Positions 3,427 through 52,621 of a DNA stretch of 64,000 nucleotides are shown here, one piece after another; the first letter of the stretch is position 1, and each line of letters begins with the position of its first letter. The notes beneath the pieces were generated by a model. It had not been told where the DNA came from and ran no database searches. It worked only from the letters and a program-made list of their open reading frames with translations. The position numbers and the translations under genes are program-made. The DNA lies in the UHGV virus genome UHGV-1373641; one strand, given 5' to 3'. This DNA is from a virus.

Positions 3427-3927
3427 ATGCAGACATTTCTTCCCGTTCCAGACTTCCTTGAAACGGCTAAGATTCTCGACAATAAGAGGTTAAATAAGCA
3501 AATCGTGGAAGCCTATCAGATTTTTTCTGGTCGTGTACCTACAAAGAACCATCCGGCTTGCCTTATGTGGGAGGGATATGAATATGATTTGAGTAGATAT
3601 ATTGCGACTTTATGCTCCGAATACTATATGCGGTTTGGAAAGTCACATGTAATTCGTGAGAGGTTGAGTGGTGTCAGATTATACAGTTTTGAATCCACCG
3701 AAAAACCTTTCTGGCTTGGGGATGGTCTTTTCCACTTCTCGCAAAGGGTCAATCTCTTGCGTAAGGACTTTGACTACTATCATACGAAAAAGTTTTTTGG
3801 TGGCATTAGCAAGGACTCGTTAGATCGCTATCCGAAGGGCTATTATTGGCCTGTAGCGAAGCCCAATGGAACCGCGCATAAAGATAGGATGAATTGGATT
3901 GAATGGATTTCTGAAAAGAGTTTTTAA
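3427..3927 (+). CDS. Hypothetical protein with possible weak resemblance to the MRLWSLHP..YLD / NHP 'pyrimidine dimer DNA glycosylase-like' phage family
   Basis: The N-terminus MQTFLPVPDFLE...NHP loosely parallels the family start MRLWSLHPQYLD...NHP. This is from memory and needs a profile search. Confidence 0.25.
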   Translation: MQTFLPVPDFLETAKILDNKRLNKQIVEAYQIFSGRVPTKNHPACLMWEGYEYDLSRYIATLCSEYYMRFGKSHVIRERLSGVRLYSFESTEKPFWLGDGLFHFSQRVNLLRKDFDYYHTKKFFGGISKDSLDRYPKGYYWPVAKPNGTAHKDRMNWIEWISEKSF

Positions 3928-3934
3928 AAAAGTG

Positions 3935-3963
3935 TTGACAAGGTAACGAAAATTTCATAGTAT
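3935..3963 (+). promoter_or_regulatory. Sigma70-like promoter TTGACA-N17-TAGTAT
   Basis: ttgacaaggtaacgaaaatttcatagtat. It shares TAACGAAAATT..CATAGT with the promoter at 856. Confidence 0.55.
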
Positions 3964-5352: not shown

Positions 5353-5537
5353 GCATCAATAAGAAAACCGTGGACCTCGCAATTTTCGAGTGTGAAAGAT
5401 TCCTTGAGCGAGCTAAGCTTGTGGCTTCTCTTGGTTATATTCATGCTGACGTAAGATACACCGCAGCATTGAAGCGGTCTTGCGCGGAAGTAAGAAACGC
5501 GGTGGTAGCTGTAAGAAAGGATGCTCGAATATGCTAG
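5349..5537 (+). CDS. Hypothetical 62-aa protein
   Basis: SD aaagggga. Translationally coupled within the operon. Confidence 0.4.
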   Translation: MSINKKTVDLAIFECERFLERAKLVASLGYIHADVRYTAALKRSCAEVRNAVVAVRKDARIC

Positions 5538-5842
5538 GCAACGGCAGAAACTTTGGGATGAACAACATAAAGGCGGCTCAGATGAATAACGAAAAAACGG
5601 AAAAGACAGAAAACGCATCTTCAATTCTACAAAAGACGGAAGATGATATCCTCATGTTTTTGGTTTATGCTATAATCAATCTTGTTTACGTTGTTGGTTT
5701 GTTTGGGTTTCTTCTGCCGTTTTTGATTAGCTCCGAATCTACGGCTTTAGTCCTGACCGGAGCGGCATTGATTTTTAGTTTCCCCGTAACTGTGTTTTTG
5801 AGCTATAAAACCTTTAAAAGTATTTTTAAGGAAGACGTATAA
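5531..5842 (+). CDS. Small two-TM membrane protein immediately upstream of the SPFH gene, in the position of an NfeD-like partner
   Basis: The ATG at 5531 has SD aaagg. Hydrophobic segments are FLVYAIINLVYVVGLFGFLLPFLI and LVLTGAALIFSFPVTVFL. Its stop overlaps the SPFH start (ATAATGA). Confidence 0.45.
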   Translation: MLGNGRNFGMNNIKAAQMNNEKTEKTENASSILQKTEDDILMFLVYAIINLVYVVGLFGFLLPFLISSESTALVLTGAALIFSFPVTVFLSYKTFKSIFKEDV

Positions 5843-6726
5843 TGAAAAAGATTATCGCATGTGTTACTCTTGTTTTTGTCCTTATTTTCGGCATTTATGC
5901 TCTTACTTGCATTGAGAAGGTCGAGGCTGGTTACGTTGGCGTGAAGGTGAACTTGCTTGGCTCGTCGAAAGGCGTGGACACTGAAAAGCTTGGTGTAGGC
6001 CGCTATTGGGTAGGCATCAATGAACAGCTTTTCACGTTCTCTACGGCGCAGCAGACAAAGGAATGGCGGGGAACCGGAAATAGCGGCGCATTCCAATTCC
6101 AATCCAAGGAAGGGCTTTCTCTCAGTGCTGACGTTTCTCTGTCTTACTCCGTTGATCCCGATAAAGTGTCTTTGCTTTTCCAAACGTATAGAAAGGGTAT
6201 TGACGAAATCACGAACGTATATGTTTACAACATGATTCGAGACGAGATTGTCCGCGCCGCTTCTACGAGGACTTCTGAGCAGCTTTACGGGGAAAAGAAG
6301 ACCGAGTTTATTATGCAGGTGACGGAGGCCGTCCGTGAACGTCTCGCGCCTCTTGGGATTAAGATTGATTACATTGCCATTGTCGGCAATATCTGGCTTC
6401 CCCAGAATGTAAAGGAAGCGATTGACGCTAAGGTGGGCGCTATTCAGATTGCTACGCAGCGCCGCACAGAAATTGAAACCGCGCAAGCTGAGGCGGATAA
6501 GAAGAAAGCCGAGGCGGAAGGACGCGCCGAATCCATGCGGAAGATTGCGGATGCCGAGGCATATTCCATTACGAAGAAAGCGGAAGCTCAGTATACAGCA
6601 AATAAGAAGCTCGCTGAATCCCTCACTCCTGAGCTTATCCGATACATCATGGCTACCGGATGGAATGGAGTTCTGCCCAAGGTTACAGGAGAGAATATCC
6701 CAATGCTGAGTATCCCCCTCGAATAA
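5842..6726 (+). CDS. SPFH/band-7 (prohibitin/HflC/YqiK-like) membrane protein
   Basis: N-terminal TM, then GYVGVKVN and ...ADVSLSYSVDPDKV...NVYVYNMIRDEIVRAASTRTSEQLYG. The Ala/Glu/Lys-rich C-terminal coiled coil is typical of SPFH. Confidence 0.75.
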   Translation: MKKIIACVTLVFVLIFGIYALTCIEKVEAGYVGVKVNLLGSSKGVDTEKLGVGRYWVGINEQLFTFSTAQQTKEWRGTGNSGAFQFQSKEGLSLSADVSLSYSVDPDKVSLLFQTYRKGIDEITNVYVYNMIRDEIVRAASTRTSEQLYGEKKTEFIMQVTEAVRERLAPLGIKIDYIAIVGNIWLPQNVKEAIDAKVGAIQIATQRRTEIETAQAEADKKKAEAEGRAESMRKIADAEAYSITKKAEAQYTANKKLAESLTPELIRYIMATGWNGVLPKVTGENIPMLSIPLE

Positions 6727-6734
6727 ATGCTAAT

Positions 6735-6790
6735 AAAGACTTGTGACAACCTAAATGCGGTTTTAGTTGTCACAAGTCTTTATTTTTATC
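6735..6790 (+). terminator. Rho-independent terminator (16-bp perfect stem, 15-nt loop, U-tract)
   Basis: aaagacttgtgacaac ctaaatgcggtttta gttgtcacaagtcttt atttttatc. Confidence 0.8.
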
Positions 6791-6812
6791 TTGTAGTTTA
6801 AACAAAAAAGTA

Positions 6813-6841
6813 TTGACACCCCCAAGATAATTTCGTAGTAT
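6813..6841 (+). promoter_or_regulatory. Sigma70-like promoter TTGACA-N17-TAGTAT
   Basis: ttgacacccccaagataatttcgtagtat. Confidence 0.55.
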
Positions 6842-6862
6842 CTATTTAAAGAGAGGGAGGAA

Positions 6863-7075
6863 ATGAACATGAAAACCGAATCAAAGCAATTTACAAGAGA
6901 AGAAGAGATTGAAGCTAACCTATTCGCATATGAGCTTTTGATGCCAGAGGAATTGTTTAGAGAGAAAGCAGCGGAACATAATTACAGTATTACTAGGCTC
7001 TCAATGCTTTTCGGAGTTTCGAAACCTCATGTTCTTACGAGGCTTATAACTTTGGGATTGCCAGACAGAAGTTGA
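6863..7075 (+). CDS. Truncated ImmA/IrrE (COG2856)-like fragment. It keeps the C-terminal E..EAN.FA.ELLMP helix but has no HEXXH
   Basis: EEEIEANLFAYELLMPEELF...LSMLFGVSKPHVLTRLITLGL matches the C-terminal half of ImmA/IrrE metallopeptidases. There is no upstream coding space for the catalytic motif. Confidence 0.5.
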   Translation: MNMKTESKQFTREEEIEANLFAYELLMPEELFREKAAEHNYSITRLSMLFGVSKPHVLTRLITLGLPDRS

Positions 7076-7093
7076 AAAAGGAGAATGGTGTGT

Positions 7094-7342
7094 ATGGAAA
7101 TGATTAGAAACGTAAAAAATTATATAGCTTTATCGATGGACTTTTCGGGCATATTTTTAAGAACGCTGGTCATTTTAGTTATTTTGTATGTAGGGATGGT
7201 TTTTGTAAACGGAGATTTTTTCAATCCTTTTATGTCTGTGCCAAATCCAGACGGTGTAGATGTCGCTAAAGGAACTAGAGCCATAATACTTGTATTATCT
7301 TTTGTCCTGTCAATTATGCTCCCATCTTTAATTGAAGATTAA
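7094..7342 (+). CDS. Small membrane protein (two TM segments)
   Basis: The ATG at 7094 sits 10 nt after SD aaaggag. Hydrophobic IFLRTLVILVILYVGMVFV and AIILVLSFVLSIMLPSLI. Confidence 0.45.
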   Translation: MEMIRNVKNYIALSMDFSGIFLRTLVILVILYVGMVFVNGDFFNPFMSVPNPDGVDVAKGTRAIILVLSFVLSIMLPSLIED

Positions 7343-7358
7343 AAAAAAGGATAAAGTA

Positions 7359-7781
7359 ATGAAAACATGGATTTATCTGGATGACGAAAGAACGCCTTCA
7401 TATAATTTCTTCCAAGATGTGGATGAAGGTGACGATGAAGATTTTGAAGTCTACACCGTTCGGAGCGGAAAGCAATTTATGAAGATTATTGAAGAAGTGA
7501 ACCCCCACGGCATTAGTCTTGATAATGACCTTGGAGGCTCGGGGCATCTTAGCGAAGGCTATCAAGTCCTGAATGAAATAGAAAAACTGATTTCTGAGGG
7601 TAAGCTCCCCGCCCTTCAAATCGTGAGAGTGCATTCCGCTAACATCGTAGCCAAGCTCAGGATGGTTACTACCGCGAAGGAGATGTTCCAGAGATTCGGA
7701 AGAAAGGATGGTATTGCATTCGCTACGTATCATGAGCCTAGCGGGAATAAAAACGACGCGGTTTTCTATAAAAATAAGTAA
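7359..7781 (+). CDS. Stand-alone receiver (REC/CheY-like) fold protein
   Basis: beta1 WIYLDDER (acidic pair), central ISLDNDLGG (phospho-Asp-like position), later ALQIVRVHSAN. The ATG at 7359 follows SD aaaagg. The longer ORF would need a TTG start. Confidence 0.4.
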   Translation: MKTWIYLDDERTPSYNFFQDVDEGDDEDFEVYTVRSGKQFMKIIEEVNPHGISLDNDLGGSGHLSEGYQVLNEIEKLISEGKLPALQIVRVHSANIVAKLRMVTTAKEMFQRFGRKDGIAFATYHEPSGNKNDAVFYKNK

Positions 7782-8176: not shown

Positions 8177-8537
8177 ATTCCTTACAGAATTGGAAAAGCT
8201 AAGGAAAGCCGCCACGAATGGAGGCGATTGGCATCTTGACGAGTCTCATTGTCATGGAGCCATTAACTGTGGGGACAAACATATCGCAATGGTAAATATG
8301 TATGTTTGCAATGATTATCCTACGCAAAATGTTCTTAGAGAGCAACAGCTTGCCAACGCTAAGTATATCGTTGCGGCGTGTTTGTCGGTCAAACTTCTTT
8401 CCGAAGCACTTATATGCCTAGCGTCCATATCTGTAGAGAAAGATGGCATTAAGGACGAAAATTATAATGCTGACCAACTGGCTAAGGAAATTGATGCCGC
8501 ATTTATTATGGCAGAACAAATTAATAAAGGAGAATGA
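8139..8537 (+). CDS. Hypothetical protein
   Basis: The ORF overlaps the upstream stop. Start is 8139 or 8160. Confidence 0.4.
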   Translation: MKKGWRDMNESLRFLTELEKLRKAATNGGDWHLDESHCHGAINCGDKHIAMVNMYVCNDYPTQNVLREQQLANAKYIVAACLSVKLLSEALICLASISVEKDGIKDENYNADQLAKEIDAAFIMAEQINKGE

Positions 8538-8542
8538 ATAAC

Positions 8543-8935
8543 ATGCCTAAGTTTAAAGAATATCAAAAGGTTTTGGTTAGAGATACTGAGGATGGAATTT
8601 GGGCAGTAGACTTGTTTTCCCATTATATTGATGACGAATTTGTGACTCTCGGCAATCGTTTGTGGGCGTATTGTATTCCCTATCATGGCAATGAAGATCT
8701 TGTAGGAACAGCTAAAAGCGCATGGAAACCTAAGAAGGGGGAACTTGTGGCTGTGAGTCATGAGGGTAGCTCATGGTTCGCTAGGGTCTTTATAAGTGAA
8801 GAAAAAAGCGAAGAAGGTATTATCTACAGAGTAAAAAACTGTGAAGGCCGTATTTTTGAAGAGTTATTTGAAACATGGGAATACCGTGCACCTCTTGAGC
8901 ATCATTTTGATATTGGTAAGAAGGAAGAAATCTAA
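8543..8935 (+). CDS. Paralog 1 of a triplicated small-protein family (shared motif F(K/D)KVLVRD.ED..W...FSHY...YCIP..GNE.LVGT..KKGELVAV...WF.R.F)
   Basis: SD aaaggag. About 35-45% identity to 8935..9318 and 9645..10034 by eye. Confidence 0.55.
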   Translation: MPKFKEYQKVLVRDTEDGIWAVDLFSHYIDDEFVTLGNRLWAYCIPYHGNEDLVGTAKSAWKPKKGELVAVSHEGSSWFARVFISEEKSEEGIIYRVKNCEGRIFEELFETWEYRAPLEHHFDIGKKEEI

Positions 8936-9318
8936 TGCCTGAGTTTAAAATGTTTGATAAAGTTTTAGTTAGGGATTCCGAGGATGATAATTGGGTCGCA
9001 ACTTTTTTCTCTCATTATGATATAGAAGGGCGTGCTATAGCTATCAATGACGCTTCTTGGAAATATTGCATCCCTGCCCTCGGCAATGAGCATCTTGTGG
9101 GGACGAAGAATAATGAATGGGTTCCTAAAAAAGGCGACCTTGTTGCGGTCAGAGATAGATTTCATGGTGGTGGGTGGTTCCTTCGTATTTTTTATGGAAC
9201 GATTACTCGTAACGGCAATAAGGTTTATATTGCAGGAGGTATGGACACATTTGACCATAATCGAGGAGAATGGGACTGTTGCGAGCCCGCAAAAAATCAC
9301 TTTGAATTTAATTCTTAG
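8935..9318 (+). CDS. Paralog 2 of the triplicated family
   Basis: MPEFKMFDKVLVRDSEDDNWVATFFSHY...KYCIPALGNEHLVGT...KKGDLVAV. Confidence 0.55.
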   Translation: MPEFKMFDKVLVRDSEDDNWVATFFSHYDIEGRAIAINDASWKYCIPALGNEHLVGTKNNEWVPKKGDLVAVRDRFHGGGWFLRIFYGTITRNGNKVYIAGGMDTFDHNRGEWDCCEPAKNHFEFNS

Positions 9319-9644: not shown

Positions 9645-10034
9645 ATGTACGATTTTAAGCCTTTTGATAAAGTCTTGATGCGAGATTCTGAACATGAAAT
9701 TTGGGAGCCAGCGCTTTTTTCGGGAAAGGTAGGGGACGCTTTTAAAGATACCAGCTTGATTGTGTATAGGTATTGCATTCCTTACGAAGGTAACGAACAT
9801 CTTGCAGGGACCTACAATGCGCCGAAGCCTATTTGGGAGCCTAAACCAAATGAACTTGTGGCGGTTAGTGATAATGCTGTGGACTGGATTATGCGGATTT
9901 TTAAAGAAACGATTCATGAAAATGGAACTAATCGTTTTATTACGAAAATTGGGAAGGCAAATAGCTCCACAATTATTTCATGGAGGTATTGTGAACCCGT
10001 AAAAAAGCATTTTGATTTTATCCTGCCCGAATAG
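9645..10034 (+). CDS. Paralog 3 of the triplicated family
   Basis: MYDFKPFDKVLMRDSEHEIWEPALFS...RYCIPYEGNEHLAGT...NELVAV. SD aaaaaggag. Confidence 0.55.
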   Translation: MYDFKPFDKVLMRDSEHEIWEPALFSGKVGDAFKDTSLIVYRYCIPYEGNEHLAGTYNAPKPIWEPKPNELVAVSDNAVDWIMRIFKETIHENGTNRFITKIGKANSSTIISWRYCEPVKKHFDFILPE

Positions 10035-46127: not shown

Positions 46128-46571
46128 CTACAACTTTACGATTCTTTGGTTATTCGATGCCAACTTTATTCCGAATAAAGGTTCTATATAAGATGGTTTT
46201 GTTTTATCATACATTCCGAGCTTGGCATATTTTAACAGGTGGTGAAGCGGCTTAGGAATTTTTTCATATCTTGTCCATAACCAAATCTCCTGAAAATACG
46301 CATTCAATCGAATGATAAAGTTTTGAAGAGAAATCAAATTCTGATCAAGAGGTTCTCCTCCCAAAATCCAAACTTTTTTTACTAATAGTTCACTGTCTTT
46401 AAAAAGTCCAGAATTTTCTTGAGTTTTAAGCCATTCCTGATACGGAATCCCCTGATTGAATTCCCAAAGTTCTTTGTTATGACATCCCTCACAATGAGGT
46501 GCCTTACATCCGGAAAGATATATTTCCAGTGCCCGATGAGCCAGATTAAATTCTGTGCCCGCTACTCGCAT
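46128..46571 (-). CDS. nrdG: Anaerobic ribonucleotide reductase activating protein
   Basis: SGCKAPHCEGCHNKELW parallels the E. coli NrdG SGCVHECPGCYNKSTW radical-SAM cluster motif. Adjacent to nrdD. Confidence 0.65.
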   Translation of the reverse strand: MRVAGTEFNLAHRALEIYLSGCKAPHCEGCHNKELWEFNQGIPYQEWLKTQENSGLFKDSELLVKKVWILGGEPLDQNLISLQNFIIRLNAYFQEIWLWTRYEKIPKPLHHLLKYAKLGMYDKTKPSYIEPLFGIKLASNNQRIVKL

Positions 46572-49507
46572 CTCATTTCTTCCTTACCATAGAACTGGCG
46601 ATTGGGACGGTCTTTTTCACGGCGAACCTTATTCCAATTTTTTACATTAGTAAAGAATCCGACAACACGGGTAATCTCCTCAGACCATTCTTTGCCACAG
46701 GTAGGGCATCTGTCGGAACCCACCCAAGTATGGTTATCATCGCAGATCCGAAGAAGATAGTTTACTGCCCAATAAACAACGCCAGACTTTGCGGCATAGA
46801 TGATAAGGTCTTCGATGTTCTTCGTGTCCTCAATTCTCTCACCAACATTGACATGGCAAATCGCTCCACCCGAAAACAATCCATCGAATTTTCCTTGGAG
46901 TCTAATACGGTCGAGCATATTGGCTTTAGCGATAAGCGGAATAAACTGATTCGAATAGAAGGATACTCCACAATCGTAACCAAGGACTTTATCTTTCTTC
47001 GCGAGTTTCACAGAGGATGACTCGGCAGGAACCTGTTCACAATTATGAGGAGCTTGATACAATTCTTGAGCTTCATCAATCCAAAGGTTAATCTGTTCAA
47101 GAGTCCGCATCACAAGATCTTGCCCATCCTCATCCAAAATGTCCTTTCCGAGGATGCTCACTGCTTCATAGAGTCCGGTGACTCCAAAAGTCGAATATTG
47201 TTTAGTAATATCCATGTATCCATGCGTGTACAAAGGCGCTGCGCCAAGGTCAATTCGACGCTGTACAATCTTGCGTTTAGCGTTATTGATTTTCGCTGCG
47301 GTAAAAAACGCATCCCTAAGCTTATCAATAAACACGCCCTCATCTCCCCCCGACTGCATTGCAAGGCGAGGGAAGTTTGCCGTCACAACACCAAGAGATC
47401 CAATTTTTGTGCTTCCGGAGCCGAAAGAATTAAAATACTCATTTTTCCTGTCCGAGCGCAAACGACAGTTATGGGTGATTACGCCATTGGGCAAAGTGAA
47501 GTAAGGTTCTTCCGGATTCTGCATTTCAAAACAATATACGTATTCTTCGTCGTAAGGAACTTCTTCGACACTTTCTACCTTAAAATACACAGAGTTGTTT
47601 CTTACCTTGTATACGCCCGGATGCTCACGACGATTCTTCAAATCATACCAACGGATACAATATAGGGGGTAATTCCGAGAATAGTTCTTTCCGCGAATCT
47701 CCACCAACTCATCAGTGCGATCCGACAGGTCGATGTTGCTAACCATACCCAGAGAAGTAAGGATGGCTTCTCCAGTTTCGATAAGCTCTTTAGACGTAGA
47801 ATAAATACGATTGCTATTTCCTCCGTCAGTTGCATACCATCCGGCGATGATGCCCTTGCGGAACTCTGTGGATTGAAGAAGAATGTTCATATCAAACGAC
47901 TTCTCTTCCGCATAAGAACCTTTAACATACTTCCCAATAATATCATATATCGCCTTAGAATAAATTTTGGCAAACACAACTTTGTTCCGGGACGGATTAA
48001 TATGGAAGTCCTCTTCAATACCCCAATCTTTTGCGGCTTGAATAAGCGTGTCGATACAACCGCGCTTCGCTTCACTCAAAGAAAAAGTCACATCGTAACT
48101 TTCGACGCCCTCTCTTGCATATCGGCTTCCATCGCCAGCATAGGCCCCAATGAGATACCCCTGAGCATAGGTAAGGTGCTCATCTTTTTCATTATAAGAG
48201 TTAAGCTCCCTCATACTGAATCCGATATAATCATCAGTAGTCAAATCAACAGTAGTTTTATCCCCAGAGAGAGTATAGTTGATATGATTATCCGTTACAA
48301 CAAATTCCTTCTTATTAGAAAGAACGACCTTATACATCTTATGGCCCAAAACAGGAAGCATCACGGGCTTTGCCTTGACCCAAGACCCATTGTGGAATAC
48401 AGCGAAGTTCTTCCTATAAAGATCATAGTTGGATGATTTTACGATATCACGAATATCCGCAAGAACCACGCCATTACTGGATTTCGTAAGGACTTTCTGC
48501 CCTCCAGAAAAACAGCATGAACTCAAAGTTGACATTTTGCCATTATACATATTGATAAATCCGAACTCTTTGTTCTTCTCAGCAATGAACTTTACAAAGT
48601 CCTTATCTACGATATTTCGGTCGTCATCAATAGAAAAACAAGCTGTCGTTACGGGAAACGTAAGAGGCGTTCTCCGCATCTCTTCATTCATGGCGTCGAG
48701 GAAAAGCCCCTGCAACTCATGAACAGTTTCAGGATTAGCGGCTTTTCCGTCCATCATGTAATCAGGACAGAGGGATTCAAGGAAATTACGGTCGAATACA
48801 GAAAGATTGGAAAATGGGCTTTGATTTCCCCGGAATTCCCAATTCACCGTATAAATAAAATTGATAAGTTTTTCCTTTACATATGTTTTATAATCATCAA
48901 CTTTAATCCGACCATCGTATCCGATCTTTTTCATTTTTTCTACGAAAAGAGATGCCACAATAAGAAAATCTGCAAATCCGGTAGCTCCCAAGGTTGAGTT
49001 TGCAGCAACAACCATAAACTGTTCTACTTGACGCACAAACGTCTCCAAAGATTTAGGAGCGCTCACACGAACTCGCTTAGATACGCCTTCCAAACCATTA
49101 AGAGCGATATCATAAGTAGAATAATTAAAACAATAGGGAAGGGCTACATCAGTGGAGTCGTTAACATAAAGATCACCACGAAGCACTTTTTCCACGACAG
49201 TATTAGCTTCAAGGAGCCCATAATCCTTTTTAATCTGTTTCCAGAGGAGGAAATAACTATTGTACTTTTTAATGGGCTTCGGCATTTCATGATTATACTC
49301 AATAGATGTCCGCGCACATACATTGGCATTAGAGTCTACGGAAACATCTGCCGTTGTAGTATCCGTATTAAAAAAATCTTTAGAAAACTTATTGATATCC
49401 ATCTGATCGCCAATTCCATCCAAGGTCAAAAAGTCCCTGCCATATTTAGCGATAAGATACATCATAAGGTCATAGAACTCTTGATCCCAAGTAATCTTAA
49501 TATGCAT
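46562..49507 (-). CDS. nrdD: Anaerobic ribonucleoside-triphosphate reductase (class III) interrupted by an intein
   Basis: C-terminal Zn ribbon CDDNH...CPTCG plus glycyl-radical-like RVVGFF. Extein about 632 aa. Confidence 0.75.
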   Translation of the reverse strand: MHIKITWDQEFYDLMMYLIAKYGRDFLTLDGIGDQMDINKFSKDFFNTDTTTADVSVDSNANVCARTSIEYNHEMPKPIKKYNSYFLLWKQIKKDYGLLEANTVVEKVLRGDLYVNDSTDVALPYCFNYSTYDIALNGLEGVSKRVRVSAPKSLETFVRQVEQFMVVAANSTLGATGFADFLIVASLFVEKMKKIGYDGRIKVDDYKTYVKEKLINFIYTVNWEFRGNQSPFSNLSVFDRNFLESLCPDYMMDGKAANPETVHELQGLFLDAMNEEMRRTPLTFPVTTACFSIDDDRNIVDKDFVKFIAEKNKEFGFINMYNGKMSTLSSCCFSGGQKVLTKSSNGVVLADIRDIVKSSNYDLYRKNFAVFHNGSWVKAKPVMLPVLGHKMYKVVLSNKKEFVVTDNHINYTLSGDKTTVDLTTDDYIGFSMRELNSYNEKDEHLTYAQGYLIGAYAGDGSRYAREGVESYDVTFSLSEAKRGCIDTLIQAAKDWGIEEDFHINPSRNKVVFAKIYSKAIYDIIGKYVKGSYAEEKSFDMNILLQSTEFRKGIIAGWYATDGGNSNRIYSTSKELIETGEAILTSLGMVSNIDLSDRTDELVEIRGKNYSRNYPLYCIRWYDLKNRREHPGVYKVRNNSVYFKVESVEEVPYDEEYVYCFEMQNPEEPYFTLPNGVITHNCRLRSDRKNEYFNSFGSGSTKIGSLGVVTANFPRLAMQSGGDEGVFIDKLRDAFFTAAKINNAKRKIVQRRIDLGAAPLYTHGYMDITKQYSTFGVTGLYEAVSILGKDILDEDGQDLVMRTLEQINLWIDEAQELYQAPHNCEQVPAESSSVKLAKKDKVLGYDCGVSFYSNQFIPLIAKANMLDRIRLQGKFDGLFSGGAICHVNVGERIEDTKNIEDLIIYAAKSGVVYWAVNYLLRICDDNHTWVGSDRCPTCGKEWSEEITRVVGFFTNVKNWNKVRREKDRPNRQFYGKEEMRCE
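47468..48514 (-). mobile_element. 349-aa intein with a LAGLIDADG homing endonuclease, in NrdD
   Basis: CFSGGQKVL... (Cys1), LAGLIDADG motifs YLIGAYAGDGS and IIAGWYATDGG, C-terminal ...GVITHN then the +1 Cys (CRLRS). Confidence 0.8.
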
Positions 49508-51499: not shown

Positions 51500-52621
51500 T
51501 TATGCTTTAAAGTTATATACTGGCTTAATAGTGAACAAGGCTTCCACCGATTGAAGATTGTTACGAATCTCTGATCCATCCTTGTATGCCATAGGGCTTT
51601 CGTCAAGAGTAGAAGTATTTACGCAAGAAGAATAAATACCTTCCATTTCATTTTTAAAATCATTCATATCAAGACTGCGCTTGGCTTCACCTCTGCTTAG
51701 TCTACGTCCAGCTCCATGAGGTGCGGAATAGTTCCAATCTTCAAGCCCTTTACCAAAACCAAAAATAATACCGTCTCTCATATTCAAAGGGATCATAAGA
51801 GCCTGTTCTTTTTTAGCGGAAACGGCTCCCTTGCGCAGCATGAACACATCATTGTCAATACGTTCTATATAGTTATGAACGGTTTCATAAACATCATCTT
51901 TCTTAATCCCAATGTGTAGCATGATATCGTTAATGATCGCCTCACGATTCAAAGAGGCATAATATTTCATGATTTCCATATCATACATATATTCATCGAA
52001 CATCTCCCCTGAAAGATACGCTAGATGTTTGGGGGTGCCCGGACATTCTTTAATAGCGACATTTTGATAATAAGTAGCTACTTCTTTTCCAATATTCCTA
52101 GAACCAGAATGTACGGTAAGGAAATAAGAAAAAGTACCATCGAAATTATCGGATTCCCCTATTTCAATAAAATGATTCCCTCCCCCCAAAGTCCCAATAC
52201 TGTGCTCCGCACGAGCGATATTAACTTCATTACGACACGCAAGCATATTCAAATTGATGGCGCTAACCAATTCATGCTTGTCGTTACGAATATTAAATCC
52301 TGCGGGAATATGCTTTCGAATAATTCGATCAATTTCTTCAAAAAAGCTATTGTTAAGTTTATCGTCCAAAGTAAATTCACAGGAAAGTAATCCACAACCT
52401 ATATCGACTCCGACAAGATTAGGAACGATTTTCTTGTTTTCGATAGTCATCGTCGTTCCAATAACGCATCCAGCGCCAGCATGTACATCTGGCATAATGC
52501 GAATCCTACTACCTTCGGTGAACTCTTGATTACACAATTCGATAATTTGAGCCATAGCTGTCGGCTCAACATAATCCGTGAAAACCTTAGCTGTACTTAC
52601 TGAGCCTTTTACTTCAAACAT
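51500..52621 (-). CDS. rtcB: RtcB-family RNA ligase
   Basis: DVHAGAG, VGVDIGCGL, GGGNHFIEIG and APHGAGR motifs. Confidence 0.8.
   Translation of the reverse strand: MFEVKGSVSTAKVFTDYVEPTAMAQIIELCNQEFTEGSRIRIMPDVHAGAGCVIGTTMTIENKKIVPNLVGVDIGCGLLSCEFTLDDKLNNSFFEEIDRIIRKHIPAGFNIRNDKHELVSAINLNMLACRNEVNIARAEHSIGTLGGGNHFIEIGESDNFDGTFSYFLTVHSGSRNIGKEVATYYQNVAIKECPGTPKHLAYLSGEMFDEYMYDMEIMKYYASLNREAIINDIMLHIGIKKDDVYETVHNYIERIDNDVFMLRKGAVSAKKEQALMIPLNMRDGIIFGFGKGLEDWNYSAPHGAGRRLSRGEAKRSLDMNDFKNEMEGIYSSCVNTSTLDESPMAYKDGSEIRNNLQSVEALFTIKPVYNFKA

Follow-up and report, generated by a model that had tools for sequence, protein, structure and literature searches.

We describe a segment of five plus-strand genes at positions 5531-7781 of the virus genome UHGV-1373641, within the 64,000 nucleotides that were analysed (hereafter the window). 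In order, the genes encode a small protein with two transmembrane segments (2-TM), an SPFH protein, a short ImmA-like protein that we call mini-ImmA, another 2-TM protein (tm2) and a stand-alone cREC protein. Judged by its sequence, mini-ImmA is a new, recurrent and selected short variant derived from the M78 family (Peptidase_M78), and is predicted to be non-catalytic. The SPFH protein with its 2-TM partner and the cREC protein are, on the same grounds, new members of catalogued phage families. An earlier note on this DNA had proposed a single functional host-interaction or anti-defence cluster; we find instead that its parts vary independently among eight relatives. The segment is probably made of separately inherited modules (the SPFH pair, mini-ImmA, and a cassette of tm2 and cREC) with no integrated system.

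Gene content was compared across eight related contigs. Both tm2 and cREC are absent in two of the eight, and mini-ImmA there directly precedes the next gene (orf130); an extra tandem paralog of tm2 is found in two. A frameshift interrupts tm2 in one relative and cREC in one, the SPFH gene of one relative has lost residues ~30-220 through an internal in-frame deletion, and in one a single deletion runs from the membrane partner to the middle of cREC, which joins an upstream gene region to mid-cREC. The lesion-bearing relatives are L008 (contig 150758), L002 (119450), L006 (141352) and L014 (122762). These lesions represent either real decay of accessory genes or errors of metagenome assembly; whole genes that are cleanly present or absent are no such errors. 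Since genes are gained, lost, duplicated, deleted and frameshifted independently, the segment amounts to a variable accessory stretch within a long early operon and not to one system. Each gene is under purifying selection as measured by the ratio of nonsynonymous to synonymous polymorphism (pN/pS): 0.06 for SPFH, 0.13 for cREC, ~0.16 for mini-ImmA, which lies inside the range of its neighbours, and 0.33 for tm2, the highest value in the segment.

Members of the ImmA/IrrE/CapP family (Peptidase_M78, COG2856) are zinc metallopeptidases that cleave XRE-type repressors (ImmR, DdrO, CapH). Their zinc ligands are H82, H86 and E113 in IrrE, where E83 is catalytic, and H97, H101 and E128 in CapP. Mini-ImmA most likely starts at the ATG at 6869, giving 68 amino acids like its database relatives. 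It matches Peptidase_M78 (E=3.4e-11) at positions 68-122 of 123 only, and a profile of full-length homologs at positions 111-176 of 189 only (E=8e-25); its best PADLOC match is capP, at positions 95-153 of 242 (E=9.7e-10). The homology extends over the helix of the third zinc ligand (E..EAN.FA..LLMP) and the helices resembling a helix-turn-helix (HTH). The glutamate of the third ligand is present, with E15 and E17 in EIEANLFA, equivalent to IrrE E113 and CapP E128. In contrast to the family, the protein has no N-terminal half, no HEXXH motif anywhere in its open reading frame (ORF) and no GAF domain; it cannot coordinate zinc or cleave, and its 68-70 amino acids compare with a median of 173 in full-length homologs. 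CapP unites peptidase, HTH and GAF parts and is paired with CapH; mini-ImmA lacks the N-terminal part of the peptidase, the GAF domain and CapH. Without the HEXXH helix, it therefore cannot be a peptidase. Profile searches using hidden Markov models (HMMs) rejected neither the ImmA nor the REC assignment of the earlier note (for the latter, cREC_REC, E=2.2e-13), and its description of a 70-residue ORF that keeps the C-terminal part of ImmA without HEXXH holds.

The missing half was sought elsewhere. A profile of the N-terminal half, built from 87 full-length ImmA homologs, matches no reading frame of the window (best E=2.4), and no match was found in loci covering ~95% of an 85.9-kb relative with an identical mini-ImmA, which rules out a split ImmA gene. 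No XRE gene is adjacent: the neighbours are the SPFH and 2-TM genes, and a crude XRE profile of limited sensitivity, made from four seed sequences, gave nothing at E<0.5 in the window and related loci (~95% of one relative). As mini-ImmA has neither HEXXH nor the usual XRE partner, it would be wrong to class it as an ImmA peptidase.

Single-query, word-indexed protein searches reach close relatives only; an exhaustive HMM search and a profile query extend further. Against 1.8 billion cluster representatives (a 50%-identity library), the exhaustive search with mini-ImmA returned 214 matches at E<=0.001, headed by the representative of the query's own family. Of the best 149 below that representative, full-length, HEXXH-containing proteins account for 96 (median 173 amino acids) and HEXXH-less proteins of 53-89 amino acids for 35, of which 31 start with methionine. 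Six short forms that we checked are complete ORFs inside their contigs, with upstream genes unrelated to ImmA; truncation at contig edges is thereby ruled out. Wherever the contig is long enough to judge, short forms lie in phage genomes. Two are clearly phage-borne, one in the early string of small genes of a ~25-kb integrase-bearing phage, the other beside the terminase of a P22-like phage. Reading the sequences directly, with no profile applied, we saw no XRE genes among the inspected neighbours of short forms.

A degenerate DNA pattern for EAN.FA.ELLMPE was also scanned against IMG/VR and gave 80 matches. In 69 of them an H[ED]xxH motif precedes the pattern within one ORF; a further match extended past the edge of its locus. 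The ten without the motif comprise five from this phage group, four from a second, independent family of short forms, and one long ORF of >360 amino acids whose motif is degenerate. A side result of the scan is an ImmA-like ORF of >360 amino acids in L098 (IMGVR_UViG_3300043466_004445, motif at 6804-6842), in which HEXXH reads YELGH, its first histidine being replaced; this could be a variant of full length whose catalysis is impaired.

The short forms differ from the enzymes at the third ligand: E17 is kept in 23 of 29 short sequences against 40 of 40 full-length ones (p=0.004), and E15 in 20 of 29 against 39 of 40 (p=0.001). The hydrophobic F-A..LLMP face is as conserved in short forms as in enzymes. 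Relaxation of the zinc-ligand glutamates with retention of this face fits a loss of catalysis in which a structural or binding surface was preserved. No earlier description of a short, HEXXH-less class of ImmA was found in the literature searched.

An AlphaFold2 model of mini-ImmA from a 76-sequence alignment has four helices and a predicted local distance difference test score (pLDDT) of 81. Residues ~29-63 form a three-helix bundle with pLDDT >90, and the N-terminal EAN.FA..LLMP helix scores 57-81. The best PDB matches found by Foldseek are the ImmA-like Mycobacterium regulator 6cz6 and IrrE 3dti (root-mean-square deviation 1.7 Å over 50 residues), followed by HTH DNA-binding domains (FapR, Fis, NtrC4). 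All E-values are >0.1, as expected because the query is so small.

The cREC protein most likely begins at ATG 7359 (140 amino acids) and not at TTG 7332. It scores 51.1 bits against PF20274 (gathering cut-off 27) and matches phrog_1479 with E=5.5e-19; the classical receiver family Response_reg (PF00072) gives 15 bits and E=0.028, under the cut-off of 30.2. A profile search yielded 326 homologs. All 120 of those listed carry PF20274, and most of the listed ones are stand-alone proteins of ~110-120 amino acids, several of them on phage contigs of 100-150 kb. In 82 cREC sequences, R11, D55, G67, H92 and N95 never vary, and conservation reaches 90% or more at D8, D9, P13, N56, D57, L58 and G59. 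The AlphaFold2 model (pLDDT 84, predicted template modelling score 0.81) has five strands, with D8/D9 placed after strand 1, D55 after strand 3 and H92-N95 after strand 4. Almost all of its top 50 PDB matches in Foldseek are receiver domains of response regulators (probability 0.97-1.0); by sequence, no solved structure matched significantly (best E 0.21). The call of a REC-like protein in the earlier note is therefore borne out, as a member of cREC.

The cREC family (cyclic-phosphate-processing receiver domain) consists of divergent receivers, which Iyer, Anantharaman, Krishnan, Burroughs and Aravind recognised in jumbo phages through comparative genomics (2021, PMC7824862; 2022, PMC9503650). 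According to the same studies, it was never found with histidine kinases, has links to RNA ligases, sirtuins, Nudix and 2H enzymes, and is predicted to be a cyclic-phosphate phosphoesterase acting on 2',3'-cyclic RNA ends or on cyclic ADPR-type phosphates (PMC7824862, PMC9503650). Like the known cREC proteins of T5-like and V5-like phages (~113-120 amino acids), the window protein is stand-alone and phage-borne, with the receiver fold and its acidic residues. It differs in an extra C-terminal extension of ~25 amino acids, and in following small 2-TM proteins, whereas the described neighbourhoods hold an RNA ligase, sirtuin, Nudix protein or kinase. Among the proteins scanned we found no histidine kinase, sirtuin, Nudix or KptA partner. 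In Proteus phage Stubb, a stand-alone cREC homolog (CPT_Stubb_093, L052 3857-4204) lies inside the tRNA genes of that phage, in their cluster, which ties it by context to tRNA biology.

By family prediction, the most likely activity of the window protein would be the hydrolysis of cyclic phosphates, either 2',3'-cyclic RNA ends that feed RtcB, or cyclic ADPR or oligonucleotide immune signals. RtcB seals ends bearing a 2',3'-cyclic phosphate or a 3'-phosphate to 5'-OH ends. The presence of cREC together with a phage RtcB suggests processing of RNA ends or of cyclic signals. RtcB is found in all relatives sampled, including the two without cREC, and also in more distant viral contigs. An obligate pairing of the two is thus unsupported: RtcB is core and cREC optional.

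In front of cREC, tm2 has a likely start at 7094. No Pfam family matches it, and phrog_4766 does so weakly (E=0.019); the two hydrophobic segments of the ORF agree with its earlier description as a two-TM protein. Together tm2 and cREC would form an optional cassette, with one or two small 2-TM proteins and a stand-alone enzyme.

NfeD is the usual operon partner of SPFH proteins in cells. The SPFH protein of the window aligns with Band_7 over profile positions 2-176 of 176 (E=4.9e-26, 92.3 bits, cut-off 23.6) and with phrog_200 (E=8.4e-72), in line with the SPFH/band-7 call made from the sequence alone. A hydrophobic transmembrane segment at residues 1-29 (KD19 maximum 2.66) anchors it at the N-terminus. 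Its partner counts 86-103 amino acids, depending on a start that may lie at 5567 or 5582, and has two transmembrane segments only. It had been described as standing in the position of NfeD. This is right for gene order but not for homology: no Pfam match to NfeD appears at E<=1, and phrog_1130, annotated as membrane protein, is matched instead, so that the pair differs from the cellular SPFH-NfeD operon. The stop codon of the partner overlaps the ATG of SPFH (TAATG), suggesting translational coupling.

Phage records with an SPFH homolog number 538, cover many host groups and label it as prohibitin family protein, SPFH/band 7 or lipoprotein. A gene for 73-84 amino acids lies directly 5' of SPFH, and overlaps its start, in both Desulfovibrio phage ProddE (a podovirus) and Pseudomonas phage Pacha_bin_1; its 2-TM product shares the motif P-x-L-[IV]-S...LV..G with the partner in the window. 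As the pair recurs in very different phages, phrog_1130 plus phrog_200 is, by these comparisons, a conserved two-gene phage module. Phage-genome papers note SPFH genes too, such as Kayvirus MbpS beside the membrane protein MbpV. The window protein has the same N-terminal anchor, SPFH domain and coiled-coil tail as phage SPFH/prohibitin proteins (phrog_200; MbpS, ProddE), and likewise has a small membrane-protein gene directly upstream, as in MbpS/MbpV and ProddE. For the segment proteins, NCBIfam gave weak partial matches only, HflK/HflC-like and RamB-like. By analogy with general SPFH biology, the 2-TM protein and SPFH would most likely assemble a scaffold or cage on the host cytoplasmic membrane.

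Behind the SPFH gene lies an intrinsic terminator (Table 1), whose hairpin of -28.2 kcal/mol (z=-9.2) was equalled by none of 200 shuffles. Its stem is kept in the relatives, where the loop changes in length and sequence. The promoter that follows it is kept in all relatives. Both elements, a strong terminator after SPFH and a separate promoter before the 70-residue ORF, are thus as the earlier note had them. A copy of the promoter at 3935-3963 is near-identical and has similar flanks, which makes 6813-6841 a repeated early promoter; a third, weaker copy lies at 856-884. The promoters have in common the flank pattern AAAAAAGT..TTGACA...AATTTC.TAGTAT...TTT.AAGAGA, and the copies suggest a repeated phage early-promoter element. 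The ribosome-binding site of mini-ImmA, GGGAGG at 6855-6860, is conserved among the relatives.

Table 1. Features of the segment, with RtcB as genomic context
Feature	Position	Strand	Remarks
Small 2-TM membrane protein, SPFH partner	5531..5842	+	phrog_1130, E=3.2e-9; two hydrophobic segments
N-anchored SPFH/prohibitin-family protein	5842..6726	+	Band_7 (PF01145), phrog_200
Intrinsic terminator	6732..6795 (hairpin 6732-6784)	+	23-pair hairpin, then U-tract
Sigma-70-type early promoter	6813..6841	+	TTGACA-17-TAGTAT; kept in all relatives
Mini-ImmA, 68-70 amino acids	6863..7075	+	Peptidase_M78; third-zinc-ligand helix and HTH-like subdomain of ImmA/IrrE
Small 2-TM protein (tm2), 82-85 amino acids	7085..7342	+	two hydrophobic segments
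Stand-alone cREC protein, 140 amino acids	7359..7781	+	cREC_REC, PF20274
RtcB RNA ligase (genomic context)	51500..52621	-	Pfam RtcB, E=4.7e-56

How should mini-ImmA be understood? The earlier note saw in it a catalytically dead remnant of ImmA. It is dead, in that HEXXH is gone; "remnant" is contradicted by purifying selection and by the many independent short forms. It is very improbable that the ORF is a non-functional piece of a truncated ImmA that stays open by chance. Such a piece would account for an alignment confined to the C-terminal part of the domain, and for an ORF that begins just after the junction of promoter and terminator, a possible deletion site. Yet its pN/pS is like that of neighbouring genes, it is intact in seven of the eight relatives while neighbours decay, its promoter and strong ribosome-binding site are conserved, relatives at 74-77% identity are also 72 amino acids long, and 35 independent short forms occur in a library clustered at 50% identity. 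Mini-ImmA could also be a small, Cro-like HTH regulator of early phage transcription, which would have arisen by recruitment of the HTH part of an ImmA-like ancestor. Its gene is the first to follow the repeated early promoter, residues 29-63 match the HTH domains of FapR, Fis and NtrC4 in addition to IrrE, and in IrrE and CapP this subdomain packs against bound single-stranded DNA. However, mini-ImmA has a net charge of -2 and short forms are slightly acidic on average, no Foldseek E-value was below 0.1, repeats resembling operators were not seen (no search was aimed at them), and the strongly conserved EAN.FA..LLMP helix would have no role in a simple HTH regulator; we hold such a regulator to be unlikely, though less so than a chance remnant. 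The most likely role would be a non-catalytic binding one at an ImmA/ImmR-type switch.

Switches of this type control the induction of prophages and of integrative and conjugative elements (ICEs); as CapP/CapH, they control CBASS and other defence operons. Read from the repeated sigma-70-type early promoter, mini-ImmA would act as a binding module that interferes with, or replaces, such a pair of XRE repressor and protease in the host or in a resident element. That it might be a decoy for an ImmR/ImmA switch is possible. It is a different matter to see one anti-defence cluster in which a dead ImmA decoys a host ImmR/ImmA switch of the CapH/CapP type and the REC-like protein sequesters nucleotide immune signals. 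With capP as its best PADLOC match, mini-ImmA spans the equivalent of IrrE ~97-160, including acidic residues just before the third zinc ligand. In IrrE, contact with the DdrO DNA-binding domain requires D94 and D98 from the region before that ligand, and mini-ImmA keeps the acidic stretch. The protein is moreover selected and recurs in phages, and the cREC family is contextually tied to conflict systems based on NAD/ADPR and cyclic nucleotides. Against such a cluster stand the independent inheritance of its parts and the absence of PADLOC matches for SPFH, its partner, tm2 and cREC. The notion that REC singletons sequester nucleotide signals, part of the earlier note, found no support: the family is predicted to be enzymatic, and cREC retains the catalytic aspartates, which a sponge would not need; the conserved receiver-type acidic residues argue for an enzyme. 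Mini-ImmA also lacks the hydrophobic surface modelled for substrate binding in CapP (V59-L80). We therefore regard the single cluster as unlikely, if somewhat less so than the Cro-like regulator. An anti-defence reading of every gene in the segment is a hypothesis. The boldest version would make HEXXH-less mini-ImmA proteins (~55-90 amino acids) a widespread, undescribed class of phage inhibitors of XRE repressors or of ImmA/CapP/IrrE proteases, so that damage would no longer induce defence operons or competing prophages and ICEs, with cREC from the same operon destroying cyclic-phosphate immune signals; it is the more doubtful of the two anti-defence proposals, and ranks a little below the Cro-like regulator.

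Several points weigh against separate modules with the roles proposed above. Some of the frameshifts and deletions in the relatives may be metagenome-assembly errors. Near mini-ImmA there is neither an adjacent XRE gene nor a target gene, and the CapP surface modelled for CapH recognition, which mini-ImmA does not have, lies N-terminal to HEXXH. RtcB, the sole RNA-repair gene found, is encoded 44 kb from cREC on the opposite strand, and its retention in relatives without cREC means that a dedicated cREC-RtcB pathway is not required. The role of SPFH in phages is called unclear in phage-genome papers, and cREC was still described as experimentally uncharacterised in 2022 (PMC9503650).

The window belongs to a gut-type tailed phage, with genes for TerL, a portal, a prohead protease and a major capsid protein. 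PolA, an SNF2 helicase, ThyX, dUTPase, NrdD, NrdG and RtcB are encoded as well, and there are no tRNA genes in the window. No near-identical DNA was found among cultured phages (INPHARED). The relatives are IMG/VR metagenome contigs only, and those of ~80-90 kb come from one metagenome. The anaerobic ribonucleotide reductase NrdD (46562-49507, minus strand) is split by an intein with a LAGLIDADG homing-endonuclease domain and adjoins an NrdG-like 4Fe-4S activase (46128-46571, minus strand); an anaerobic host is therefore implied. From 1 to 11 kb the genes lie on the plus strand, in an early-type arm of small ORFs, and the transcription unit runs on beyond 7781, where there is no terminator and small ORFs continue as far as ~11 kb. 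The explanation that we prefer as a whole, at somewhat better than even odds, assigns the segment to the early (left-arm) transcription units of a ~86-kb tailed phage of an anaerobic host.

Two observations concern other genes of this arm. At 3427-3927 (plus strand), a 166-residue protein matches the pyrimidine-dimer DNA glycosylase family at its N-terminus (Pyr_excise, DenV-like; E=3.3e-13). Three paralogous ORFs of ~130 amino acids stand nearly in tandem at 8534-8935, 8935-9318 and 9645-10034 (plus strand) and have in common the N-terminal motif FK.[FY].KVL[VM]RD[ST]E...W; no Pfam family was found for them. Past the position of the window's right end, the relative contig 119450 carries a divergent module (L141 1-10000, L148 10600-20636) with an MT-A70 methyltransferase, a Rha plus KilAC antirepressor-like protein, an SF1 helicase, a DUF5906/VapE-like primase-helicase, Bro-N, an M15 peptidase and a GNAT protein. 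Neither an integrase nor an XRE repressor was seen in this module, suggesting a virulent lifestyle; no integrase was found for the phage.

Apart from the uses of mini-ImmA and cREC, the segment is an ordinary one: it is accessory, it varies between relatives, and its families were known from phages before. Its main value lies in two small proteins that can be tested directly, the 68-residue half-ImmA and the stand-alone cREC of a phage that encodes RtcB. The compact natural cREC is useful for a first biochemical test of the cREC prediction. Mini-ImmA is a small reagent that can easily be tested, and a recurrent, selected, non-catalytic half-ImmA borne by phages would be a simple candidate for tampering with protease-repressor switches.

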